A program made the position numbers and the translations under genes. The notes beneath the pieces are model-generated. The model ran no database searches, had not been told where the DNA came from, and worked only from the letters and a program-made list of their open reading frames with translations. Of a stretch of DNA of 31,985 bases, positions 1,209 to 31,985 are shown in pieces. Positions within the stretch are counted from its first letter, which is position 1, and each line of letters starts with the position of its first letter. The DNA is from a virus: the IMG/VR virus record IMGVR_UViG_3300038566_000256, positions 1 through 31,985 of that record; one strand, given 5' to 3'.

Positions 1209-1218
1209 GGGGTATTTT

Positions 1219-1557
1219 ATGGCCGTTGAAGTTCTGAACATTATTCCGCGCAAGCAAGCCGAAAACACCCAAACAGGGCAATACACTTCTGACAATGCGA
1301 AAACCATCATCGACAAATTCACCGTCACCAATACGTCGGCGAACAACGTTGATTTCAGCGCGAACCTGGTTGCCAGCGGTGGTTCGCCAGGTGATTCGAA
1401 CCTTGTTATGAAGTCGCGAACAATTGCACCTGGCGAAACTTACACTTGCCCCGAACTGGTTGGTCAGGTGCTTGAATCGGGTGGTTTTATTAGTACGTTG
1501 GCTGGTGCGGCGTCATCGCTAACCATTAGCGCGACCGGACGTGTTATTACAAGTTGA
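1219..1557 (+). CDS. Hypothetical small beta-rich protein of 112 aa, probably virion- or tail-associated.
   Basis: The ATG at 1219 has an AAGGGG ribosome-binding site 6-12 nt upstream and lies 10 nt after the needle stop. I recognise no motif. Confidence 0.6.
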   Translation: MAVEVLNIIPRKQAENTQTGQYTSDNAKTIIDKFTVTNTSANNVDFSANLVASGGSPGDSNLVMKSRTIAPGETYTCPELVGQVLESGGFISTLAGAASSLTISATGRVITS

Positions 1558-1606: not shown

Positions 1607-1653
1607 TCGGAAGCGACCGGCGGCTTCAATCCTTCATTATTGGAGAGAAGAAG

Positions 1654-2523
1654 TTGACGGCACTAATCAAAGAAAAACCAACAGCTATCGCGAAGCATGA
1701 CGGAATCGAACAGATCGAAGCCGCTATGTTGAACATGGAACAAGCCGATTGCCCTGTTGCCCATCACTTCGGGCCAGGTATTTACGTTCGCGAAGTCACC
1801 TTGCCGAAAGGCATTATTGCCGTCGGGCATTCCCAACGATTTGAACACCTGAACATCATGTTGACCGGTAAAGTTGCAATGGTCGACGGTGATCGCGTGC
1901 GTGTTCTTGAAGCCCCGATGATTTTCGTCGGCCAACCTGGTCGCAAAGTCGGTTATGTGATGGAAACGTGCGTTTGGCAAAACATTTATGCCACCGACGA
2001 AACCGACATCGACACATTGGAAGCGACGTTTCTTGATAAAAGCGACACCTGGCTTTCACACGAAGAAGATTTGAAGGTTTTTCGCCATGCGTCACATCAA
2101 GACGACCGCGACGACTTCTTTGCCATGTTGGGCGAAGTTGGGTTTGACCCCGAAACCGTTCGCCAACAATCCGAAAACGAACCCGATCAAATCCCGATGC
2201 CTTCCGAATGGGCGACCGCAACCAGTGTTCGCGAATCCGATATTGAAGGTCAGGGGTTATTTTTAAGTTGGCCGGTTCCGGCCGAAACCATTATTGCACC
2301 GGCACGAATCAACGGATTTCGCACCCCCGCCGGTCGATTTGTAAATCATGCCAAAAACCCGAATTGTAAATTTGTAAAAGTCGACAACGGCGACATTTAT
2401 TTGGTCGCAATCGCTAATATTCGCGGTTGTGCCGGTGGAACAAAGGGCGACGAATTAACCGTTGATTATCGTCAAGCGTTGTCGTTGTCTGGAATTGGAG
2501 AAAACAAACCATGTCAGGAATAG
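1654..2523 (+). CDS. Two-domain protein with an N-terminal cupin-like beta-barrel and a C-terminal SET-domain (lysine methyltransferase-like).
   Basis: A TTG start is preceded by a GGAGAG ribosome-binding site. The C-terminus has the SET motifs in the canonical order: GQGLF, RFVNHAKNPNC (compare NHSCxPN) and GDELTVDY (compare ELTxDY). The N-terminus (HHFGPGIYVREV..GHSQRFEHLNIMLTGKV) is cupin-like by eye. An acidic linker joins the two. Confidence 0.7.
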   Translation: MTALIKEKPTAIAKHDGIEQIEAAMLNMEQADCPVAHHFGPGIYVREVTLPKGIIAVGHSQRFEHLNIMLTGKVAMVDGDRVRVLEAPMIFVGQPGRKVGYVMETCVWQNIYATDETDIDTLEATFLDKSDTWLSHEEDLKVFRHASHQDDRDDFFAMLGEVGFDPETVRQQSENEPDQIPMPSEWATATSVRESDIEGQGLFLSWPVPAETIIAPARINGFRTPAGRFVNHAKNPNCKFVKVDNGDIYLVAIANIRGCAGGTKGDELTVDYRQALSLSGIGENKPCQE

Positions 2524-3161
2524 CAACCGCGATGGTTGGAAGCGCCGTTGTTGGTGGCTATATGTCCAGCAAAGCGCAAGAAGGGGCCGCCGAAACGGCC
2601 GCTGGCGCACAACAGGCGTCAACCGAAGCGTCGATTGCTGAACAGCGTCGTCAATTCGACGCAATGCAAGAATTGCTTGCACCTTATGTTGCCGCCGGCG
2701 AACCCGCCATTCAACAGATGGGTGTTTTGGCCGGTCTTGGTGCGCCAGGTGAACAGCAAGCGGCCATTGCCGCCATTGAACAATCACCATTGTTTCAAGC
2801 ACAAGTTCGCCAAGGTGAAGAAGCATTGCTTCAACAGGCTTCGGCCACCGGCGGTTTACGCGGGGGAAATATTCAAGCCGCGTTGGCACAATACCGGCCG
2901 CAAATGCTTCAACAGGCGCTCGAAACCCAATACAACCGATTGGCTGGTTTGGGTCAAATGGGTCAGGCTTCAGCCGCCGGACAAGCAGCCCAAGGAATGC
3001 AATCGGCGGCTGACATCGGCAACTTGCTTCAGCAATCAGGGCAAGCCCAAGCGCAAGCCGCGTTGGCTTCAGGGCAAGCCCAAGCGCAAATGTGGGGTAA
3101 TATTGCCGGAAGTATCGGCACCGTTGCCGGAATGTCAAAAGGCAGCTTCGGCAAATTTTAA
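2511..3161 (+). CDS. Internal virion/ejection protein candidate at the P22 gp7 position. Gln/Ala-rich.
   Basis: The ATG overlaps the end of the SET ORF by 13 nt. The call rests on low-complexity Q/A/G-rich sequence and on synteny with the P22 ejection-protein cluster. No specific motif was seen. Confidence 0.55.
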   Translation: MSGIATAMVGSAVVGGYMSSKAQEGAAETAAGAQQASTEASIAEQRRQFDAMQELLAPYVAAGEPAIQQMGVLAGLGAPGEQQAAIAAIEQSPLFQAQVRQGEEALLQQASATGGLRGGNIQAALAQYRPQMLQQALETQYNRLAGLGQMGQASAAGQAAQGMQSAADIGNLLQQSGQAQAQAALASGQAQAQMWGNIAGSIGTVAGMSKGSFGKF

Positions 3162-3175
3162 GGGGAACGCGAAAA

Positions 3176-4393
3176 ATGGCACTGGATTATTTAGCATATC
3201 AACAAAACGTTCGTTCCCCGCTTGAAATGGCAATGGCTGGTTATCAAACGGGCGTCAATTTGCGTCAACAGCGCGAAAAAGAAGCGGCGGCTGAACAACA
3301 AAAACTTCAAACCGCACAAATGCAAGCTGATCTTGCGTTGCTTGCGTCGAATCCAAACCCAACGGTTAATGATTACACCAATTTAATGTTGAAATATCCG
3401 ACGATGGCTGAAAATCTGAAAGCCCCGTTGGCACAATTGACCGAGCAACAATCTTCAGCGAAACGCGCTGAAGCATTGAACATTTTTGCCGCGCTTGATG
3501 CCGGTCAGACTGAAATTGCCGAATCATTGCTTCAGCGTCAGCTTGAAGCGGCGCAAAACACCGGTCGCCAAGCCGATGTTGATTCGGCGAATGCGTTGCT
3601 TCAGCTTGTTCGCACCAATCCAAACGCGGCCAAAACGTCGGCCGGCCTTTTCCTGGCGTCTTCAATGGGCGTCGACAAGTTCGGTGAAACTTGGACAAAA
3701 CTTCAATCGGAACAGCGCGAACGTCAGTTGTTGCCTGGTCAGCTTGAAAAGCAAGCGGCCGATCTTGGTTTGACCCAACAGCAAACGAAAGAAGCGTTGG
3801 CGCGAACCGACAAATTGGGCGCGGAAACGCAAAAATTGGCGCTTGAACTGAAGGCGATGGAAAACGGCGTTGTTGATCCGCAAAAAACGTTCAACATGGA
3901 AAATACATTACGCGGCGACTATCAAAAGCGCACAACCAGTTTGTCGGAAGGAACCCGCAACCTTGACATCATTCAGCAATCAGCCGGCGACAAAACAGGC
4001 GCTGGCGATATTGCGTTGATTACGTCGTTTATGAAGATGCTTGACCCTGGTTCCGTTGTTCGCGAAACCGAATTCGCCAGCGCACAAAACACCGCTGGTT
4101 TGGTTGGATCGCTGGAATCTTGGTTGAAGCGTCTTAACAGCGGCGAACTGTTGAAAGACGAACAGCGCAAGACCTTCGCCAACCTGGCGAAGAAATACAT
4201 GCAAGCCGCCGAACGCGAAGACAAGCGTGTTCGTGACGATCTTGGTTTTGTAATCAAGAGTTACAACCTGAACCCCGAAAACATTTTCGGTTCACGCGCC
4301 GGCGTCGGTGCGCCCGAAGACGAAACTGAACAAAAACCGGCCGCGTCGGCGCCAGGTTACATGAAATATACAACCCAAGGGGGCGCCCAATAA
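3176..4393 (+). CDS. Internal virion/ejection protein candidate at the P22 gp20 position. Coiled-coil rich.
   Basis: 405-aa ORF with long heptad-like Q/E/A/L stretches. It is tightly packed with its neighbours. Confidence 0.55.
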   Translation: MALDYLAYQQNVRSPLEMAMAGYQTGVNLRQQREKEAAAEQQKLQTAQMQADLALLASNPNPTVNDYTNLMLKYPTMAENLKAPLAQLTEQQSSAKRAEALNIFAALDAGQTEIAESLLQRQLEAAQNTGRQADVDSANALLQLVRTNPNAAKTSAGLFLASSMGVDKFGETWTKLQSEQRERQLLPGQLEKQAADLGLTQQQTKEALARTDKLGAETQKLALELKAMENGVVDPQKTFNMENTLRGDYQKRTTSLSEGTRNLDIIQQSAGDKTGAGDIALITSFMKMLDPGSVVRETEFASAQNTAGLVGSLESWLKRLNSGELLKDEQRKTFANLAKKYMQAAEREDKRVRDDLGFVIKSYNLNPENIFGSRAGVGAPEDETEQKPAASAPGYMKYTTQGGAQ

Positions 4394-6921
4394 TGGATGA
4401 ACAAACCATCAATGCCATTTATCAAGCGTATGTTTCCGGCGCAATGACGCCGGAAGATGCGGCTGAATACGAAGCTGACGTTCAATCAGGAAAAATGACG
4501 TTGCCGCAAGGGGCGACGCTTCAGCAAGAATCGGCACCGGTCGCGGCAACACCTGAATCACAAACAATTCAACCAGTGAACCAAAGTCAGGTTGAAACCG
4601 CGCCGATGCTGAACCAAGGTATTGTTGACGCGTATCAAAACGGTCAAATGACCCGCGACGACATGATGCAACTGGAACGAGACGTTGCTGAAGGTAAATG
4701 GTTGTTGCCTGAAGGCGTTCAACTTCAAACCACCAAATCGATGGGATTCTTTGAACGTGTCGGTGAAATGGTAACGGGTGAAGAACGAAGCACGCCAGAA
4801 ATCGAAGCGTTGCCTGATTGGGGTGGAATGCCCGAAATGAATTCGTTCAGCATGGCTAGCTTCAAATCGGCGCTTGGCACGTTGATCACTGATCCGGCCG
4901 AAACCGTTCAAATTCTGAAAGCGAACTTCCCTGGCATCGACGTTCGTCGTGATTCCAAAGGCAACTTCATTATGAAGTCGTCACTTGACGGTCAAGAATA
5001 TGCAATCAAACCAGGTTTCCGCGTGTCGGATATTCCGCGTGCGGGTTCCGGCATTGCTGCATTTACGCCAGCCGGTCGCGCTGTCACATTGCCTGGTCAA
5101 ATTGGTGGTGCGGCGGCGACGCAAGCGGTTATTGAAGGGTCGCAAGTTGCAACCGGCGGTGAATTCGACCCTGAACAAATTCCGTTGGCCGGTTTGGCTG
5201 GTGGGGGCGGCTATTTAGTCGGCAAAGGTCTTCAGGCTGGCGGTCAAACACTTGGGCGCGCATACGAACGTTTTATGCGCGCACCAAAACCGGCACCACG
5301 CGTTGAACCGACAATTGGTGTGACGCCAAAACAACCTTCGCCGATGGGCGCTATGCCTGAAGGCGCCGAAGCAATGACAACCGGTGAACTTGGTGCAACA
5401 GCACGAAAAGCCGCCGAAGGTGGCGTTGGTGCGACCCAAGCACAAAGGGTTCTTGCCGAACAAGCGATGCCTGATCCGAAAGTGATTGAAGCCGCGCAAC
5501 GATTGGGTGTTGATGAATACCTTCAGCCCGATCATGTGTCAACCAACCAGGCGTTTCGCGAACTTTCCCAAGCCGTGAAGTCGGTTCCTGGTTCACAAGC
5601 GCGAACCGCTGAATTGCAAGGTTATCAGGCGATCGGGCAACGCGCCGACGACATCATTGACGAATTGGGTGGTTTAACTGATTTAAGTCAAATTGACGCG
5701 ACGGTGAAAACCCGCTTGTCGCAAGTTCAAACCCAATTGGATGACGCCGCCGAAAAACTATACAAGCAAGTCAACGAAGCGATACCACCGAAGACCGATG
5801 CACCAGCCAACAACCTGATCACGTTCTTGGAACGTCAGGCCGACGAATTGGGCGGCGAAGAATTCTTTTCGGCACAAGAACGCGCTTTGTTGAAACAATT
5901 GCGACCGCGACCGGTTCTGAACGAAGCCGGCGAACAGATCGGTGAAGAAATGCCGACGTATGCGCGCCTTGATCGCATTCGCAAGGATTTAACGTCGGCG
6001 CGGGTGAAGGGCGAAGGCCCATTCAAAGACGCCAACAGCGGCATGATTAAGCGCCTGGAACGCGAATTGTTGAAAGACCAACAAACAATCGCTGACCAAA
6101 TGGGCGTTCTTGACACTTTCAATTTGGCACGCCAAACGGTTGCTATGCGAAAAGGTGTTGAAAGCGACATGGCATCGTTGTTCGGGAAGAACCTTGACCG
6201 AACCATTCTGAAGACGCTCGACACGTCAGTGAAGAAAATTCAAACCGGCGATGTCAGCGGTTTCGTGAACCTGGTGAAGGCAATTCCCGAAGATATTCGA
6301 AAAGACGTTGTTGCCAGTGGCTTGGCGTCGGCATTTGGGAAGAATGCACGAAACGGGCAATTGAACTTCACATCATACGCGAATTGGTACGAAGGTTTGT
6401 TGGCAAACAAAAAGGCACATGCGGCGTTGATGGCGAATTTGCCACCGGAAGCCCGAAAACGCCTTTCCGATCTTTATCGGGTGTCGAACGGTATTCGTCA
6501 GGCGTCCAAAGAACGCATCACAACCGGTCGCCTTCAGGTTGTCGCCGAAGAAATTCGCGGCGCAGATACGTTGCTTGGCAATATTTACGACACCGCCAAA
6601 CGCGCTTCAATGGGTGGTGCGGCTGAAGTAATCACCAGCGCCGTCGGGTTGCCAGGTGCCGGCCTTGCTTCAGGTATCACCGCCGCACTGGTGAAGGGTA
6701 AACCAAACGCAATGAAAGCGGCCGACGAACTGGTGACATCGCCCGAATTCATCGAAATGGCGAAATCGGGAAGCGAAGAAGCGGCCAAGAAATTTGTGAA
6801 GACACCTGTCTTCAAACGTTTTTATAATGCGATTGGGGGTGAACGCGCAATGTCGCTTCCAGAACAATGGGTTTTATCGGCGTTTCAAACTGAACGTCAA
6901 ATGACACGGGAGAGCGAATAA
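4393..6921 (+). CDS. Large internal virion/ejection protein candidate at the P22 gp16 position.
   Basis: 842-aa ORF. Its ATG overlaps the upstream stop in the sequence TAATG. The call rests on size and position before the tailspike. I saw no lysozyme or transglycosylase motif. Confidence 0.55.
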   Translation: MDEQTINAIYQAYVSGAMTPEDAAEYEADVQSGKMTLPQGATLQQESAPVAATPESQTIQPVNQSQVETAPMLNQGIVDAYQNGQMTRDDMMQLERDVAEGKWLLPEGVQLQTTKSMGFFERVGEMVTGEERSTPEIEALPDWGGMPEMNSFSMASFKSALGTLITDPAETVQILKANFPGIDVRRDSKGNFIMKSSLDGQEYAIKPGFRVSDIPRAGSGIAAFTPAGRAVTLPGQIGGAAATQAVIEGSQVATGGEFDPEQIPLAGLAGGGGYLVGKGLQAGGQTLGRAYERFMRAPKPAPRVEPTIGVTPKQPSPMGAMPEGAEAMTTGELGATARKAAEGGVGATQAQRVLAEQAMPDPKVIEAAQRLGVDEYLQPDHVSTNQAFRELSQAVKSVPGSQARTAELQGYQAIGQRADDIIDELGGLTDLSQIDATVKTRLSQVQTQLDDAAEKLYKQVNEAIPPKTDAPANNLITFLERQADELGGEEFFSAQERALLKQLRPRPVLNEAGEQIGEEMPTYARLDRIRKDLTSARVKGEGPFKDANSGMIKRLERELLKDQQTIADQMGVLDTFNLARQTVAMRKGVESDMASLFGKNLDRTILKTLDTSVKKIQTGDVSGFVNLVKAIPEDIRKDVVASGLASAFGKNARNGQLNFTSYANWYEGLLANKKAHAALMANLPPEARKRLSDLYRVSNGIRQASKERITTGRLQVVAEEIRGADTLLGNIYDTAKRASMGGAAEVITSAVGLPGAGLASGITAALVKGKPNAMKAADELVTSPEFIEMAKSGSEEAAKKFVKTPVFKRFYNAIGGERAMSLPEQWVLSAFQTERQMTRESE

Positions 6922-10146: not shown

Positions 10147-10560
10147 ATGTGGGCGAACCATCCCGTTTATAAACAATATCGTGTGTCGAACAACGGCTTT
10201 GTCCGACACGTTAATTCGAAATCAAACAGGGCGACACGGGCCGATCGTTATGGTTATGAAAGACTGAACATTGGTTTTAATGGTGAACACAAGACTGTTT
10301 TTGTTCACCGACTTGTCGCCGAATGTTTTATTCCAAATCCTAAAAATTTGAAATCCATAAACCACATTGATGGCGACAAATTAAATAACAAGGTTGAAAA
10401 TTTGGAATGGATGACAATCGAAGACAACGTTAGTGACAGTTACAATCGACAACATTCGAAATGCAAACCAATTGAAATCGATGGTCGAAAATATAGAAGT
10501 TTGCGTGAAGCCGAACGCGAAACCGGAATTTCGCGTTTCGAATTGGCAAGGGGATATTGA
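10147..10560 (+). CDS. Free-standing HNH homing endonuclease (HNH_3 type) with a C-terminal helix-turn-helix-like DNA-binding tail.
   Basis: Motifs HRLVAECFIPNP...INHIDGDKLNNKVENLEW. The C-terminal RSLREAERETGISRFELARG looks like a NUMOD1/IENR1-type module. Confidence 0.8.
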   Translation: MWANHPVYKQYRVSNNGFVRHVNSKSNRATRADRYGYERLNIGFNGEHKTVFVHRLVAECFIPNPKNLKSINHIDGDKLNNKVENLEWMTIEDNVSDSYNRQHSKCKPIEIDGRKYRSLREAERETGISRFELARGY

Positions 10561-11286: not shown

Positions 11287-11314
11287 ATTATACACACGTT
11301 TATTCTGTTTGCAA
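11287..11314 (-). promoter_or_regulatory. Sigma70-like promoter P1: -35 TTGCAA, 16-nt spacer, -10 TATAAT.
   Basis: On the minus strand the sequence reads TTGCAAacagaataaacgtgtgTATAAT. It shares the 15-mer TGTGTATAATAACTA with P2. Confidence 0.55.
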
Positions 11315-12655
11315 ATCTTTCTTCAAAGCATTGATCAAATTGCTTTGCGTTGCGTCTTTGTCGGCCAACACACGCATCACCCGTTCATCAAGGCAACCGT
11401 CGGCGACAATGTGAACGACCCGCACCGGCCGCGTTTGCCCTTGCCGGTGCAACCTGGCGTTGAACTGTTGATAAAGTTCAAGTGACCAGTTCAGGCCGAA
11501 CCAAACCGCCAGTGCGCCGCCTTTCTGCAAATTAAGACCGTGGCCGGCTGAAGCTGGATGGGCTAACAGCATCGGGATTTGGCCGGCGTTCCATTGGCGA
11601 ACAATGTCGGGGTTGTTGTCCAACACCACCGCGTCAGGGAACTTCGCTTTCAAGCGTTCCAGATCGGATTTGTAATTGTACGCGACCAGGATATTTTCGC
11701 CGCTGTTGTCTTCGACGATTTCAGCCAATGCGTCGATCTTGGCTTTGTGAACTTCTTTCCATCGCTTTGTTTCGTCGACATACATCGCGCCGTTGCACCA
11801 TTGCAACAATTTGTTGGCTAACACGGCGGCGGTCGACGCTTCGACGAATTCACCGTCTTCCAGTTCTATCAACAGTTCTTTTTCAAATTCCGCATAGGCT
11901 TTCAGGGTCGCCGGTGGCAACGCGATCTTTTCAACCAGGTCAATGCGTTCGGGCAATTCCAAATAATCTTCAGCCGTCATCGAAAGAACCTGGTGTTCAA
12001 TCAACTTGTGAATCGTTGCTTCAGCGCCTTCACGCGGTTCGAACTTATACCCCATATAGCCAGTGGCTTCGAAGAACCGTTTCTTGTAATTGGTCATTGT
12101 GCGCCCAAGCGATTGACCGAAATCAATCAAATACACTTGTGACCACAAATCCAACAGGCCGTTCGGTGCCGGCGTACCGGTCAGCAACACGGCGTAATTG
12201 GTCAAATGCAACACTGACTTCAATGCTTTGAACCGTTGTGATTTGGGTGATTTGAACGAACTTGATTCATCAATCACCACCATGTCGAACGGCCATTTGT
12301 TCTTGTAAAAATCCACCAGCCATTTGATGTTTTCACGATTGATCACATAAACGTCGGCGGTTCGACTCAATTGCGCGATTCGGTTGCGTTCGCTTCCGGT
12401 GCAAACCTGAACCTTCAGGTGACGAAGGTGACGCCAATTTTCGCTTTCCTGACGCCAAACCGTGTTTGCGACGCGCAACGGCGCAACGATCAAAACCTTT
12501 TCGACGGCAAGCGAATCTTGAAGGTCAGTGATCGCGGTCAATGTTGATGTCGTCTTGCCGGCGCCCATGAATAAAAACACACCGCAACGCTTCGTTTTCT
12601 TTATGAATTCAATCGTCTTTTCTTGATATGGGTGTAAATCAGTTCTATTTAACAT
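11300..12655 (-). CDS. SNF2/RAD54-family DNA-dependent ATPase/helicase.
   Basis: Motif I is LFMGAGKTT and motif II is VVIDESSSF. LLTGTPAPNGLLDLWSQ is the SNF2 signature. Motif VI is HRQGQTRPVRVVHIV. Confidence 0.85.
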   Translation of the reverse strand: MLNRTDLHPYQEKTIEFIKKTKRCGVFLFMGAGKTTSTLTAITDLQDSLAVEKVLIVAPLRVANTVWRQESENWRHLRHLKVQVCTGSERNRIAQLSRTADVYVINRENIKWLVDFYKNKWPFDMVVIDESSSFKSPKSQRFKALKSVLHLTNYAVLLTGTPAPNGLLDLWSQVYLIDFGQSLGRTMTNYKKRFFEATGYMGYKFEPREGAEATIHKLIEHQVLSMTAEDYLELPERIDLVEKIALPPATLKAYAEFEKELLIELEDGEFVEASTAAVLANKLLQWCNGAMYVDETKRWKEVHKAKIDALAEIVEDNSGENILVAYNYKSDLERLKAKFPDAVVLDNNPDIVRQWNAGQIPMLLAHPASAGHGLNLQKGGALAVWFGLNWSLELYQQFNARLHRQGQTRPVRVVHIVADGCLDERVMRVLADKDATQSNLINALKKDLQTE

Positions 12656-13115
12656 TGTGCCAATCCAATTCTTTTTCTTTGGTCAATCTGGCTTGAACGG
12701 CGTCTTCAAGATTTTTGAAATAACCAATATAAATTCGTTCGCCGTTATGTCGAATGCGCGCAATATAGCCGCCACATTTCATTTTATTGACGCCTGGTGT
12801 TCCGGTTTTATTTGTCGATCGTCTTTTTTGATTTCTAGCTTGTCTCGATTTTGAAGACCATTGAACGTTTGTTGGTTCGTAGTTTTTTGAAGAATCGATT
12901 CGATCAAGCGTGAAACCTTCGGGTCGATCCCCGATCGCTTTCAGATCATTGACGAAAACAACAAAGTCATCCCATTCTTTGCAAACGGAAATTCCGCATT
13001 CACCATAAAACTTGAAGTCTTTGTTGTTCGGGTTGTTGCACCGGTCACGCATATTTAACCATGTGCCATAAAGCGGGTGCTTCTTTCGTTCATAACCTTC
13101 AACGATTGTTTTCAT
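12645..13115 (-). CDS. Free-standing homing endonuclease with an HNH-like N-terminal domain and an AP2 DNA-binding domain.
   Basis: YGTWLNMRDRCNNPNNKDFKFYG...LDRIDSSKNYEPTNVQW is typical of phage HNH-like nucleases. The C-terminal GVNKMKCGGYIARIRHNGERIYIGYFKNLEDAVQA is AP2-like. Confidence 0.7.
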   Translation of the reverse strand: MKTIVEGYERKKHPLYGTWLNMRDRCNNPNNKDFKFYGECGISVCKEWDDFVVFVNDLKAIGDRPEGFTLDRIDSSKNYEPTNVQWSSKSRQARNQKRRSTNKTGTPGVNKMKCGGYIARIRHNGERIYIGYFKNLEDAVQARLTKEKELDWHNVK

Positions 13116-13166: not shown

Positions 13167-13466
13167 TTAACCACCATATTTTTTGACGTATTCTTCAACG
13201 TCACCAATACCGTAAAGCGTGAACACCTGACAACCAAGGTTTTTCAGCTTTGTTTGTTCGTGTTGTTGCAATTTGGTCAATTTCCCATAGGTGCGTTTCA
13301 ATTCAACAAAGTGAACCACGCCTTCAGGCCAAATCACAATTCGATCAGGGACACCGCGTTGATTTGGGCTGGTGAACTTTCGTGCCAACCCGCCGCGCGC
13401 CTGAACCATTCCAACCAGGCGTTTTTCAACTTGGCTTTCAAGCGCACCATTATTTATTTTTGACAT
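13167..13466 (-). CDS. VRR-NUC domain nuclease with a PD-(D/E)xK fold.
   Basis: Core motif GVPDRIVIWPEGVVHFVELK. The size is about 100 aa. The gene overlaps the polymerase stop by 13 nt. Confidence 0.75.
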   Translation of the reverse strand: MSKINNGALESQVEKRLVGMVQARGGLARKFTSPNQRGVPDRIVIWPEGVVHFVELKRTYGKLTKLQQHEQTKLKNLGCQVFTLYGIGDVEEYVKKYGG

Positions 13467-15253
13467 AATTCAAACCCCGTTTCTTTCAACAGCTTTTCGG
13501 CCGCTTCAATGTATCGACCGAAATCAACGTCGGTCGGAAACGATTTTGGCAAATCCATCAAAGGCTTTGCGCCGTCGGATTTCGGAACCTTGTTGTTGTT
13601 CTTTTTGTATTCGATTTGTTCTTCGGCTTCAACTTCGGTCGAATAGTAGAATCGAACCGCTTTGCCAAGATATTGATCGCGCCAAACCGCCCCGCCGTTG
13701 ACGCGGCGAACGGTCGCAAACTGACAAATATCGTCACATTTTCGAATCGTTTCTTCAATTGGCGTTCCGTTGGCGATGAACTTGGCGACCGCTTCGGGAA
13801 TGATTGGCATATCAGGGTTTTTCATCAAGCCCGTTGGCGCGAAAACGCCTTTCCCTTTGAACGATCGATCGGTTTTGACAGCGACATAGTTGTTCACGTC
13901 GCGGCTGGCCAAACGCAAATATTCGGTGCGTTCCAATTCATAAGACGTGTCAAGCATCCAATCGAACGCAACTTCACGAAGCGCCGAATCAAGCGACTTG
14001 TCGCAATAAGTCACAATGCCGTCGGTGTTGGCGCTGACAACATCAATTCCCCGCGCCTGAAGCCGTTCAATCAACATCAAAAGCGCCAATTGGCCGGTAA
14101 TGGTGGTTTGAATCAACAGTTCGGGCGAATATAGCGCCGACCATTTCGAACCCAACTTGCCGAATGACCCGTTCACACAAATCTTCAGGGTGTCGGCCGT
14201 GACTTTATCGCCGGCGCGTTTGGCTTCCAGGCGACGTTCGACAATGCTTTGATAAACCTTCAGGAATGGTTCGCCCATTGAATGCGGGGAAAGTTTTTGC
14301 TGAAGAATGATATTCGGATAATACGAAGCAACGTCATAGTCGGCCAATTGCATGTCGGTGTTTTCAACGTCGATGAACTGACGCTTTTCGCACGAATGCA
14401 AACCGCCGATGCCCATTTGAAACGCAACCCCGCCGACAATGATCGGTTCTTTCTTCAGCCAATCAGGCAGTTTCATCGCCCCATTGGCGCCAAGTTCAAA
14501 GTCAGTTTCAAGAATGCGTTCGAAGGTTTCACGCAACACCGGCGTTTCGAATTCGATGATTCCAGGGTCTTGGTAGTTGAAATAAACTTGGTCGATGTCG
14601 GGGCGATACGCTGTTTGGCCGGTGATTTTGGTGAATTCTGACTTGATCACCGCTTCGGCAATTTGCGCGTCGGATTTGCTTCGAAGGTCAATCCCGTATT
14701 GTTCCGACATCGAACGACGAAGTTGAACCTGGTCGGTCAGTTTATTGGACAATGCTTGGGTCACATCAAGGTCGTTTCCACAATACGCACGCAAAACGGC
14801 GGCGTCTTCGTCACTGATTATCGCGTCGGGTTCGATCGGCAAATCTTGCATCTTCTGAACACCCAATCGACCGCCATAAATTTTCAGTGACGCTTTGCCA
14901 GGTGCAACTTCAATCAAGTCGATGTGATCCCAAGTTCGGGGAATGTTGACGCCTTTGCTTTTCAACACTTGCCACGCCGGCAAGTTCGATTTGATGATTG
15001 CGTCGGAAAGGTCTTTGATCTGACTGTTGGTTTTGCCGGCGATGAACGCCCAAATGATTGGTAAATCATACGACAACCCGTTGAAGCTGATCGTCGTGTT
15101 TTTACGCATTAAGGCGGCGACTTTGCCGCGTTCGATGGTTGGTTCACTGTCATTGTGCATTTCAACAGTAACCAGCTTTCCGGTGCCAATCTGACGCGCG
15201 GCAAGCAAGAAGTAATTTCGGTACACTTCACAATCAATTATAACTTCACTCAT
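13454..15253 (-). CDS. Compact (599 aa) family-B-like DNA polymerase with a 3'-5' exonuclease domain.
   Basis: Exonuclease motifs: IDCEVY (ExoI), FNGLSYDLPII (ExoII) and YCGNDLDV (ExoIII). Polymerase motifs: DVASYYPNIIL (motif A, compare DxxSLYPS), KICVNGSFGKLG (motif B, compare KxxxNSxYG) and ANTDGIV (motif C, compare DTDS). Confidence 0.75.
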   Translation of the reverse strand: MSEVIIDCEVYRNYFLLAARQIGTGKLVTVEMHNDSEPTIERGKVAALMRKNTTISFNGLSYDLPIIWAFIAGKTNSQIKDLSDAIIKSNLPAWQVLKSKGVNIPRTWDHIDLIEVAPGKASLKIYGGRLGVQKMQDLPIEPDAIISDEDAAVLRAYCGNDLDVTQALSNKLTDQVQLRRSMSEQYGIDLRSKSDAQIAEAVIKSEFTKITGQTAYRPDIDQVYFNYQDPGIIEFETPVLRETFERILETDFELGANGAMKLPDWLKKEPIIVGGVAFQMGIGGLHSCEKRQFIDVENTDMQLADYDVASYYPNIILQQKLSPHSMGEPFLKVYQSIVERRLEAKRAGDKVTADTLKICVNGSFGKLGSKWSALYSPELLIQTTITGQLALLMLIERLQARGIDVVSANTDGIVTYCDKSLDSALREVAFDWMLDTSYELERTEYLRLASRDVNNYVAVKTDRSFKGKGVFAPTGLMKNPDMPIIPEAVAKFIANGTPIEETIRKCDDICQFATVRRVNGGAVWRDQYLGKAVRFYYSTEVEAEEQIEYKKNNNKVPKSDGAKPLMDLPKSFPTDVDFGRYIEAAEKLLKETGFELCQK

Positions 15254-30474: not shown

Positions 30475-30477
30475 TTG

Positions 30478-31878
30478 ATGCAAATTCCAATTTTGAACGG
30501 CATTTTTACCGACGAAAATTCCGACTTTCGAACAAGCTATCCGCGAAACATGGTGCCGGTTCCAAAGCAACAGGGGATCAGCAACGGGTATTTGCGGCCG
30601 GCTGACGGTGTTGTTCAATTTGGTATTGGCCCTGGTGTTGATCGCGGTGCAATCAATTGGAATGGTGTTTGTTACCGTGTGATGGGGACAAAACTTGTTA
30701 GTGTGTCAGCAAACGGAACCGTGACAGTTCTTGGTGATGTAGGCGGGAACGTTCAAGTGACGATGGATTATTCGTTTGATCGTTTGGCCATTGCATCGAA
30801 CGGTAAGTTGTTTTATTGGAACGGATCGGCGTTGACCCAAGTTACAGACCACGATCTTGGAACGGTTGTTGATTTCACATGGGTTGACGGTTATTTCATG
30901 TCGACTGATGGTGAATTCTTGATTGTAACCGACCTGGCCAACCCAACTTCTGTAAATCCGTTAAAATATGGTTCGTCAGAAGCCGATCCCGACCCAATCA
31001 AAGCTGTTTTGAAAGTTCGCAACGAACCGCACGCGCTGAATCGTTACACTATCGAAGCCTTCGACAATATCGGGGGTTCGACTTTCCCATTTCAACGCAT
31101 TGACGGCGCGCAAATTCAAAAAGGGGTTGTTGGAACACATGCGTGTTGTGTTTATATGGATGCAATCGCGTTTCTTGGCGGTGGTCGAAACGAAGCACCG
31201 GCGATTTGGATTGGTTTAAATGGTTCAACAACAAAATTGTCGACTAGGGAAATTGATCAAATCTTGTTGGGGTATAGCGAAGACCAACTTTCAACTGTTG
31301 TTTTTGAAAAACACCTGGAAGGTGGTCTTGATCACCTTTATGTTCGTTTACCTGACCAAACTTTGGTTTATGATGGCGCGGCGTCACAAGCTGTTGGTGA
31401 ACCGATTTGGTTTGTTCTGACAACCAGTGTTGTGGGAAAAGCCCAACATCGTGTTTCAAACCGCGTTTGGTGCTATGACAAATGGATTGTTGGCGATCCG
31501 CAAAGTTCGGCAATTGGTTATCAGACCGATGAAGTTTCAAGTCATTGGGGTCAGGTGATTGGTTGGGATTTTGGAACCGGTATTGTTTACAACGAAGGAC
31601 GCGGGGCGATTGTTCACGAACTCGAATTGGTTGCGTTGACCGGTCGCGCGGCTTTCGGCGACGACCCAACGATTTGGACACAATATTCCATTGACGGCGA
31701 AACCTGGTCAATGGAAAAACCAATAAAAGCCGGAAAAACCGGCGAACGAAACAAACGATTGATTTGGCTTCAACAAGGTACGCTTCGAAATTGGCGTGTT
31801 CAGCGTTTTCGTGGCACTAGTGACGCGCATTTGTCAGCGATTCGCCTTGAAGCACGCATTGAACCAATGGCGGTTTAA
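30478..31878 (+). CDS. Tail hub / packaged-DNA stabilisation protein, P22 gp10-like.
   Basis: The size (466 aa) matches gp10. MQIPILNGIFTDENSDFRTSYPRNMVPVP...GYLRPADG parallels P22 gp10 (MPIQQLPMMKG...DYLPVNMLATP...GYLRSFPG). The ATG at 30478 is preferred over the TTG at 30475. Confidence 0.75.
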   Translation: MQIPILNGIFTDENSDFRTSYPRNMVPVPKQQGISNGYLRPADGVVQFGIGPGVDRGAINWNGVCYRVMGTKLVSVSANGTVTVLGDVGGNVQVTMDYSFDRLAIASNGKLFYWNGSALTQVTDHDLGTVVDFTWVDGYFMSTDGEFLIVTDLANPTSVNPLKYGSSEADPDPIKAVLKVRNEPHALNRYTIEAFDNIGGSTFPFQRIDGAQIQKGVVGTHACCVYMDAIAFLGGGRNEAPAIWIGLNGSTTKLSTREIDQILLGYSEDQLSTVVFEKHLEGGLDHLYVRLPDQTLVYDGAASQAVGEPIWFVLTTSVVGKAQHRVSNRVWCYDKWIVGDPQSSAIGYQTDEVSSHWGQVIGWDFGTGIVYNEGRGAIVHELELVALTGRAAFGDDPTIWTQYSIDGETWSMEKPIKAGKTGERNKRLIWLQQGTLRNWRVQRFRGTSDAHLSAIRLEARIEPMAV

Positions 31879-31881
31879 TTT

Positions 31882-31985
31882 ATGGCTGATCCGCGTTCAC
31901 CTACACGCGCCGACCTGGCGAAATTTCTTCCCGATCAACGTTCAATTCGTGCGTTTGAAAAACTGTTTGAATTGATTCCCGATGA
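31882..31985 (+). CDS. 5' end of the tail needle/fibre gene, which continues at position 1 across the circular junction.
   Basis: The ATG at 31882 lies 3 nt after the stop of the gp10-like gene. It reads MADPRSPTRADLAKFLPDQRSIRAFEKLFELIPDE and is in frame with ORF 78..1208 through the 91-nt repeat. The 'MADP' N-terminus and the position after gp10 match P22 gp26. Confidence 0.8.
   Translation, partial: MADPRSPTRADLAKFLPDQRSIRAFEKLFELIPD
31895..31985. repeat. Terminal direct repeat, copy 2. Identical to 1..91.
   Basis: Same comparison as for copy 1. The unique genome length is 31,894 bp. Confidence 0.95.

Follow-up and report, generated by a model that had tools for sequence, protein, structure and literature searches.

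The 31,985-nt stretch of viral DNA that was analysed here in full and is called the window below (IMG/VR virus record IMGVR_UViG_3300038566_000256, positions 1 to 31,985) carries at positions 1,654 to 2,523 a gene for a protein in which a cupin β-barrel is fused to a SET domain. Both domain calls, made earlier by a model from the letters of the sequence and their translations (the sequence-only reading), are correct far beyond chance. The domain call itself is not new to databases; new here is a minimal SET domain devoid of the SET-I region, fused to a cupin module of podophages and tied to the genes of the ejection proteins. In the following, the structural and genomic evidence is presented, and a tentative role of the fusion protein in the assembly of the virion is weighed against three alternatives.

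Architecture of the fusion protein

The open reading frame (ORF) proposed in the sequence-only reading is borne out. It lies on the plus strand, encodes 289 amino acids (aa), follows the Shine-Dalgarno-like sequence GGAGAG and begins with a TTG codon, a start supported by the preservation of the N-terminus in relatives. An AlphaFold2 model of the protein, calculated from a family alignment of 72 sequences whose members are 33–52% identical to the query, reached a mean predicted local distance difference test (pLDDT) score of 92.8 and a predicted template modelling (pTM) score of 0.86. The high pTM value implies, for the predicted structure, a fixed placement of the cupin and SET domains relative to each other. 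Foldseek searches with this model, a check suggested at the outset, retrieved cupins with the N-terminal half and SET domains with the C-terminal half. The segment between the two domains had been described as an acidic linker. Its acidity is confirmed by a net charge of −13, but the term linker is not appropriate, as residues 131–173 form three confidently predicted helices (pLDDT of at least 94) instead of a floppy connection. The degree of conservation within the family is practically the same for the cupin and the SET domain (0.57 and 0.56).

The SET domain

The hidden Markov model search that had been recommended for the SET assignment yielded a match of the query to Pfam PF00856 (SET) with 27.5 bits, above the curated cut-off of 22.4 bits (E=4.5e-6). 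With an E-value limit of 0.01, the same Pfam model is matched by 66 of the 72 family members, the best of them at E=4.7e-12. Compared with the sequences of solved structures, the profile of the 72 relatives matches the SET domain of MLL1 at E=4.4e-10 and vSET of a chlorella virus at E=2.1e-6. At the structural level, the C-terminal half is related to the SET domains of MLL1, ASH1L, EZH2 and SETD8 with a Foldseek probability of 1.0 for entries of the Protein Data Bank (PDB); the superposition with MLL1 gave a root mean square deviation of 3.2–3.6 Å over 120–129 columns at 23% identity. SET domains of the MLL1/Trithorax type (pdb-codes: 5f5e, 7u5v, 6u9m) are thus the best matches in both sequence and structure, and motifs I, III and IV of the two proteins align.

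The three motifs named in the sequence-only reading were found as GQGLF (199–203), RFVNHAKNPNC (228–238) and GDELTVDY (265–272), and their key residues are nearly invariant among the 72 sequences: Gly199 (97%) and Gly201 (99%) in motif I, Asn231 (99%), His232 (100%), Pro236 (96%) and Asn237 (96%) in motif III, and Glu267 (99%), Thr269 (93%) and Tyr272 (100%), the latter at the position of the catalytic tyrosine, in motif IV. In canonical SET enzymes, the residues of GxG, NH..PN and E..DY bind S-adenosylmethionine (SAM) or carry out catalysis. Since the SAM-binding and catalytic residues are kept almost without exception across sequences of only 33–52% identity, we infer that the domain is an active SAM-dependent protein N-methyltransferase; catalytic competence is stated only at this level because the SET-I region is missing.

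The motifs had been described as following each other in canonical order and spacing. The order is indeed canonical, the spacing is not. Motif II (YxG) and the SET-I insert are absent, about 34 residues between GxG and NH being lost relative to MLL1, and the position of EYAG reads APAR. Accordingly, the alignment between the family profile and MLL1 falls into two blocks, which relate residues 184–213 to 16–46 and residues 220–273 to 87–137 of the MLL1 chain. The intervening stretch of about 40 MLL1 residues, which comprises SET-I with the YxG motif (residues 47–86 of 5f5e_A), stands opposite only about six positions of the cupin-SET family. In canonical SET enzymes SET-I forms one wall of the substrate groove. 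The cysteine-rich post-SET segment with its zinc cluster is absent as well, and the first cysteine of the MLL1-type NHSC motif is replaced by lysine or is variable. In turn, the family has a glycine-rich insert just before motif IV, from Gly258 to Gly262, which MLL1 lacks and in which Gly258, Gly261 and Gly262 are conserved to 97%, 94% and 92%, respectively.

The nearest viral precedent is vSET (A612L of PBCV-1; pdb-codes: 1n3j, 2g46, 3kma), also a minimal SET domain without pre-SET or post-SET segments. Its motif III is similar and of the NHSxxPNA type. However, vSET is a free-standing protein of 119 aa from a eukaryotic virus and methylates histone H3 at Lys27, whereas the SET core described here spans about 88 residues, lacks SET-I, is fused to a cupin and belongs to a phage whose host has no histones.

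The reduced size of the domain raises the question whether it is a non-catalytic SET remnant, whose part in an assembly chaperone would be limited to binding proteins or to a structural function. The combined loss of SET-I, the YxG motif and the post-SET segment would fit such a remnant, as would the existence of cupin-only relatives that function without any SET domain and the six of 72 members that do not reach the limit of the Pfam scan. A domain retained for binding alone, however, is not expected to keep the Asn-His pair, GxG and the catalytic tyrosine at 97–100% among sequences of about 35–50% identity. Owing to this conservation of the SAM-contacting and catalytic motifs we regard a dead remnant as improbable.

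The cupin module

The N-terminal cupin of the sequence-only reading is supported by Foldseek matches in the PDB to 4e2g, 3fjs, variants of TM1459 and KdgF, all with a probability of 1.0; for 4e2g, 3fjs and the TM1459 variants the template modelling (TM) scores normalised to the target amount to 0.54–0.61. Pfam Cupin_2 is matched by only 4 of the 72 members. Residues 8–130, approximately, are homologous to ORF13 of Ralstonia phage RSK1 (hhalign 99.9) and to gp43 of phage phiAp1 (hhalign 99.8), and the module corresponds to PHROGs 12032 and 24280.

A function of the cupin as a metalloenzyme was considered and rejected. Only a part of metal motif 1 is present (Gly53-x5-His59-x-Gln61), motif 2 contains no histidine, and the homologues that consist of the cupin alone do not preserve the His/Glu motifs; His59 and Gln61 are lost in the hhalign comparison with RSK1 ORF13 and phiAp1 gp43. 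The residues common to the fusion and the cupin-only homologues are Gln30, Phe39, Gly42, Arg46, Gly58, Gly72, Ala87, Pro88, Gly96 and Lys98. Because the canonical metal ligands are not conserved, the cupin is read as a putative binding or assembly module and not as an enzyme.

With tblastn, stand-alone versions of the module were identified in some 55 podophages in culture, whose hosts include Vibrio, Ralstonia, Shewanella and Alteromonas; examples are RSK1 ORF13, phiAp1 gp43 and the proteins of Vibrio phage VvAW1 and Thalassomonas phage BA3. They contain no SET domain but, in the two loci that were read, occupy the same place as the fusion. The genes for RSK1 ORF13 and for gp43 of phiAp1, a T7-like phage of the Autographiviridae, are located directly upstream of the first ejection or internal-virion gene and overlap it by 4 nt. 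The gp7-like protein of RSK1 contains no lysine at all.

In databases, the stand-alone cupins (PHROG 12032/24280) mostly go by the name of "short tail fiber" or "tail fiber adhesin". Neither the fold nor the fixed position ahead of the ejection genes lends support to these names, the position even speaks against them, and the "tail fiber" label looks like a propagated misannotation.

Distribution and previous annotation of the family

The fusion protein belongs to PHROG 34170 (E=9e-87), a family of unknown function. More than 1,100 relatives were found in one protein collection, and a second collection holds 277 clusters (50% identity) at E≤1e-30 and 3,924 at E≤1e-3. At least 493 IMG/VR contigs carry the fusion, and copies are present in Acinetobacter prophages; a genome scan with the single protein returned only three contigs of metagenome-assembled genomes. 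The search for SET-only homologues produced 13 short or split proteins and no new architectures. Two of these cases were looked up and proved to be a truncation at a contig end and a split gene, both still adjoining the gp7-like gene or its position.

No match to the fusion protein was obtained with NCBIfam or with the PADLOC defence models. On the other hand, NCBI already labels the copies in Acinetobacter prophages as SET methyltransferases, and one relative in GenBank is annotated after vSET. A full-text search of the literature revealed no study of the cupin-SET family, of a phage SET protein in a virion module or of the cupin module. The earlier statement that no characterised phage SET protein from a virion or ejection module was known thus holds for the literature searched, while the existing NCBI labels lower the novelty it had implied.

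Two unusual versions of the gene were noticed. In the metagenomic representative P0129 (545 aa) a 284-residue extension precedes the cupin-SET part and appears glycosyltransferase-like by eye (…VVVDNGSHPD…); this protein may be a real three-domain fusion or an artefact of gene calling. In a contig of the Joint Genome Institute (JGI; locus L008, 4501–5392) the fusion is split into an ORF of 155 aa and an overlapping SET ORF of 150 aa, the pair lying directly upstream of the gene in the gp7 position with a 13-nt overlap. The latter gene has no recorded Pfam hit. Behind the split may be a frameshift or an error; alternatively, the two genes may be a natural variant.

Coupling to the ejection genes

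The fusion gene occupies a late-operon position immediately ahead of the ejection-protein cluster (Table 1). The 13-nt overlap with the next ORF noted in the sequence-only reading is present, as the ATG of the gp7-like gene at 2511 precedes the stop codon of the fusion gene at 2521–2523, and a GGAG sequence lies within the 3′ end of the fusion gene here and in related loci. The three downstream ORFs had been regarded as ejection-like. Homology substantiates this view for the gp7-like and gp16-like proteins, while the middle one is assigned by position only. The fusion protein itself shows no homology to the gp7, gp20 and gp16 families, SET and cupin PHROGs being the only ones matched. In the gp16-like protein residues 123–279 match a "transglycosylase" PHROG in part (E=1e-10), on account of which this protein may carry a cell-wall-degrading segment.

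Table 1. Features of the fusion gene and its surroundings in the window
Feature	Position	Strand	Remarks
Conserved 113-aa ORF	1216..1557	+	between large upstream ORF and fusion gene; relatives upstream of the SET gene in 59/80 viral loci
16-bp perfect-stem hairpin, then TTTTGTATAA	1561..1595	+	in 96-nt gap (1558-1653); terminator-like scan
Shine-Dalgarno-like GGAGAG	1642..1647	+	6 nt 5′ of TTG start; read directly in the sequence
Cupin-SET fusion gene	1654..2523	+	289 aa
Cupin β-barrel module	1738..2007	+	residues 29-118; Foldseek, hhalign, PHROG 12032 and 24280
Acidic helical connector	2008..2214	+	residues 119-187; predicted helices 119-126, 131-147, 149-162, 166-173, 184-187
Minimal SET domain without SET-I and post-SET	2215..2478	+	residues 188-275
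SET motif I, G199-Q-G201	2248..2256	+	SAM-binding GxG
SET motif III, R228-FVNHAKNPN237	2335..2364	+	
Glycine-rich insert, G258-C-A-G-G262	2425..2439	+	family-specific; just 5′ of motif IV; absent from MLL1
SET motif IV, E267-LTVD-Y272	2452..2469	+	
Coupling junction	2497..2523	+	GGAG 2497-2500 inside fusion gene; gp7-like ATG 2511; fusion stop 2521-2523
gp7-like ejection protein	2511..3161	+	216 aa; Pfam P22_gp7 E=4.8e-11; PHROG 598 "DNA ejection" E=1e-36
Second ejection-cluster protein	3176..4393	+	405 aa; gp20 by position only; PHROG 13634 (unknown function)
gp16-like ejection/DNA transfer protein	4393..6921	+	842 aa; PHROG 770 "DNA transfer protein" E=1e-21; PHROG 6704
gp10-like tail hub (Phage_stabilise)	30475..31878	+	upstream across the circular junction

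The neighbourhood survey of homologues advised in the sequence-only reading demonstrated that the linkage recurs. Among 80 IMG/VR loci the gp10-like gene is found upstream in 70 and the gp7-like gene downstream in 64. Considering all 74 loci, from every source, in which a gp7-like ORF adjoins the fusion gene, the two genes overlap by 4 nt (ATGA) in 42 cases, by 13 nt in 25 and by 1 nt in one, and are merely adjacent in the remaining 6. The same arrangement is encountered in an Acinetobacter prophage, for gp30 of Rhodoferax phage P26218 and for gp49 of Pseudoalteromonas phage PH1, a protein of 27% identity whose structural module is arranged differently. As the coupling is seen in such distant phages and likewise in loci without SET, it is a deep-seated trait of the cupin family as a whole, whether the SET domain is present or not.

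This coupling bears on a further alternative, in which the protein is an unpackaged, host-directed enzyme of the producing cell that acts late in infection or from the prophage, for example by aiding assembly or lysis. Copies in Acinetobacter prophages are compatible with it, and the hairpin and the possible promoter upstream of the gene in the window make an independent transcription conceivable. A free-standing takeover gene, however, would hardly be expected to show strict positional and translational coupling to a gp7-like gene in distant phages, and matches to defence or anti-defence models are lacking. Among the explanations considered we rate this one the least probable.

The slot ahead of the ejection genes in P22 and T7

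The position of the fusion gene matches that of gene 14 in P22 and gene 13 in T7. P22 gp14 follows the tail hub or needle and directly precedes the ejection genes, and T7 gp13 follows tail tube B and directly precedes the internal core genes. The sequence-only reading, which had placed the gene roughly at the site of P22 gp14, was therefore right about the slot; a homology between the occupants is not supported. The cupin module as a homologue of P22 gp14 (Pfam DUF2824) was rejected with a BLASTP E-value of 68 and hhalign probabilities of 0.1% and 0.3%, and as a homologue of T7 gp13 (Pfam PF11090, Phage_T7_Gp13) with an hhalign probability of 0.2%.

A structure prediction for the P22 gp14 family (NC_002371 gene 14, locus L002 8911–9366; pLDDT 89.7) superimposes in Foldseek onto SpeG and other acetyltransferases with TM scores (query) of 0.70–0.75 and a probability of 1.0. 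The family is accordingly predicted to adopt a GNAT N-acetyltransferase fold, which differs from the cupin and SET folds of the protein described here. To our knowledge the function of P22 gp14 has not been explained, and a literature search found no paper on it. For T7 gp13 only insignificant matches to acetyltransferases were obtained, and no such claim is made.

If the prediction for gp14 is correct, the slot ahead of the ejection proteins would harbour an amine-modifying enzyme fold in two unrelated solutions, an observation that we take as a lead and not as proof of a shared function. A transferase is not required in the gp14/gp13 slot, because many phages have only a cupin there. One could generalise that podophages commonly build or use their ejection apparatus with the help of a so far overlooked covalent modification of amines, in which the ejection proteins would be modified by a GNAT enzyme in P22 (gp14) and by the cupin-SET protein here, or else that these enzymes are co-packaged, injected and host-modifying; this generalisation appears to us rather improbable.

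Proposed role

We tentatively favour, with somewhat less than even confidence, a scenario in which the fusion protein is an active, late-made methyltransferase that is tethered to the assembly of the ejection proteins and modifies virion-internal proteins during morphogenesis. The late synthesis of the protein would accompany that of the ejection proteins, at a constant ratio relative to the gp7-like protein. Through the cupin module, serving as a docking or assembly-factor part, the enzyme would be brought to the assembly line of the ejection proteins, and the SET domain would then methylate an internal or portal-proximal virion protein of the phage in the course of morphogenesis, not as a free cytoplasmic enzyme. 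In favour of an assembly role we consider the compact globular predicted fold, which is unlike the low-complexity ejection proteins encoded next to it, and, in favour of an enzyme at this place, the GNAT fold predicted for P22 gp14, which occupies the corresponding position.

Several points weigh against this scenario. The virion-protein target is pure inference. Without SET-I and YxG, catalysis may depend on a different part of the protein or may have been lost. As many relatives have no SET domain altogether, the SET domain would be accessory to whatever the cupin does. Finally, the gp7-like protein of one SET-positive locus (L068) contains no lysine, and an alignment of 68 non-redundant gp7-like proteins from the neighbouring genes displays no column with more than 59% lysine at a median lysine content of 2.3%. 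The gp7-like protein as a universal lysine substrate is thereby ruled out, given the lysine-free protein of L068 and the lack of a conserved lysine column.

The sequence-only reading had suggested a packaged or injected methyltransferase acting on nucleoid or defence proteins of the host or on the virion's own proteins. As an effector, the protein would enter the capsid with the ejection proteins, be expelled into the cell at infection and methylate host proteins, for instance nucleoid-associated, defence or envelope proteins. In favour of this idea, a late-made enzyme can gain access to a new host only by way of the virion. The fusion gene lies within the ejection-protein cluster and is coupled to it, and the occupant of the corresponding slot in T7, gp13, carries the annotation of an internal virion protein. 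Precedents exist in vSET, which PBCV-1 packages into its virions, and in the injected enzymes Alt of T4 and DarB of P1; together with the secreted SET effectors RomA/LegAS4 of Legionella and NUE of Chlamydia, Alt and DarB exemplify modifying enzymes that a dedicated translocation machine delivers into a target cell. The Legionella and Chlamydia effectors, however, reach eukaryotic cells through type III/IV secretion, and the two phage enzymes are unrelated. Moreover, the compact barrel and SET domain with their confident interdomain packing (pTM 0.86) contrast with the Ala/Gln/Gly-rich ejection proteins, and passage through the tail channel would require the protein to unfold. Homology to T7 gp13 is absent, and a literature search gave no proteomic report of any family member in virions. 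Weighing both sides, we judge an injected effector to be unlikely, yet ahead of a dead SET remnant, and retain a role in virion morphogenesis as the preferred scenario.

Genome setting and upstream region

An exact direct repeat of 91 bp at the termini (1–91 and 31895–31985) shows the assembly in the window to be circular and complete, with about 31,894 bp (about 31.9 kb) of unique sequence and 48.8% GC. The same protein is also encoded on a 31,993-bp JGI contig. The gp7-like and gp16-like genes together with a gp4-like adaptor and the gp10-like hub, which are located across the circular junction, identify a P22-type morphogenesis module; a pectate-lyase-type tailspike gene follows the gp16-like gene. 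The replication module of the phage is of the lytic type and comprises DNA polymerase, helicase, primase, exonuclease and a gp2.5-like single-stranded DNA-binding protein. Two HNH endonuclease genes were noticed, one at 10147–10560 (+) after the endolysin gene and the other at 12645–13115 (−). The position of the second, wedged between the helicase (11300–12655) and DNA polymerase (13454–15253) genes, suggests mobile, homing-type insertions. The whole window gave no match to Rfam at gathering thresholds, and megablast of its first 9 kb found no match among GenBank phages.

Upstream of the fusion gene, the ORF listed at 78–1208 actually starts with the ATG at 31882 across the junction (31882–31894 joined to 1–1208) and encodes 406 aa beginning with MADPRSPTRADL. 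It follows the gp10-like hub and is thus in the position of the tail needle, as the sequence-only reading had it, although a conserved 113-aa ORF intervenes between it and the fusion gene. A P22-type needle was rejected as a homologue: even with its full N-terminus the protein shows no detectable similarity to gp26 of P22, and the one match recorded, to Phage_cement_2, lies below the threshold.

The 96-nt gap in front of the fusion gene folds as a whole with a ΔG of −30 kcal/mol. Its perfect-stem hairpin may be terminator-like or an operator overlapping a TATAAT. The gap further contains TTTTGTATAAT and a small GAAGC-N8-GCTTC hairpin. In many relatives (loci L016–L058 and others) the fusion gene is preceded by a gap of 85–120 nt with a long palindrome inside and a conserved dyad-like motif, GCTGAG-N~15-CCAGCAGC(TC), about 25–60 nt upstream of the gene; one large group of relatives has, by eye, a promoter-like pair TTTACA-N18-TAGTAT. 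An RNA structure as the basis of the conserved upstream motif is disfavoured, since RNAalifold supports a consensus stem of only 4 bp (−3 kcal/mol). The motif therefore probably acts as a regulatory site in the DNA and signals a transcription unit of its own.

Implications

Textbooks present SET methyltransferases as enzymes of chromatin, and very little has been learned about what they do in bacteria and phages. The family described here combines a stripped-down SET domain with a conserved podophage module, and its genes are linked to those for the proteins of the DNA-injection channel, both in prophages of Acinetobacter and in hundreds of genomes of environmental phages. It also bears on the question whether a SET domain works without the SET-I region. 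Cultured relatives such as Rhodoferax phage P26218 make the family directly testable, and the predicted GNAT fold of P22 gp14 provides a testable hypothesis for a gene of a model phage. Even if nothing is methylated, the family would still be a useful marker and the "short tail fiber" label of the cupin module would have to be corrected. Methyl-lysine in virions, if found, would reveal that the ejectosome is modified post-translationally or that an injected effector of a new kind exists; should the enzyme be co-packaged, injected and active on host proteins, it would be the first protein methyltransferase known to be injected by a bacteriophage.

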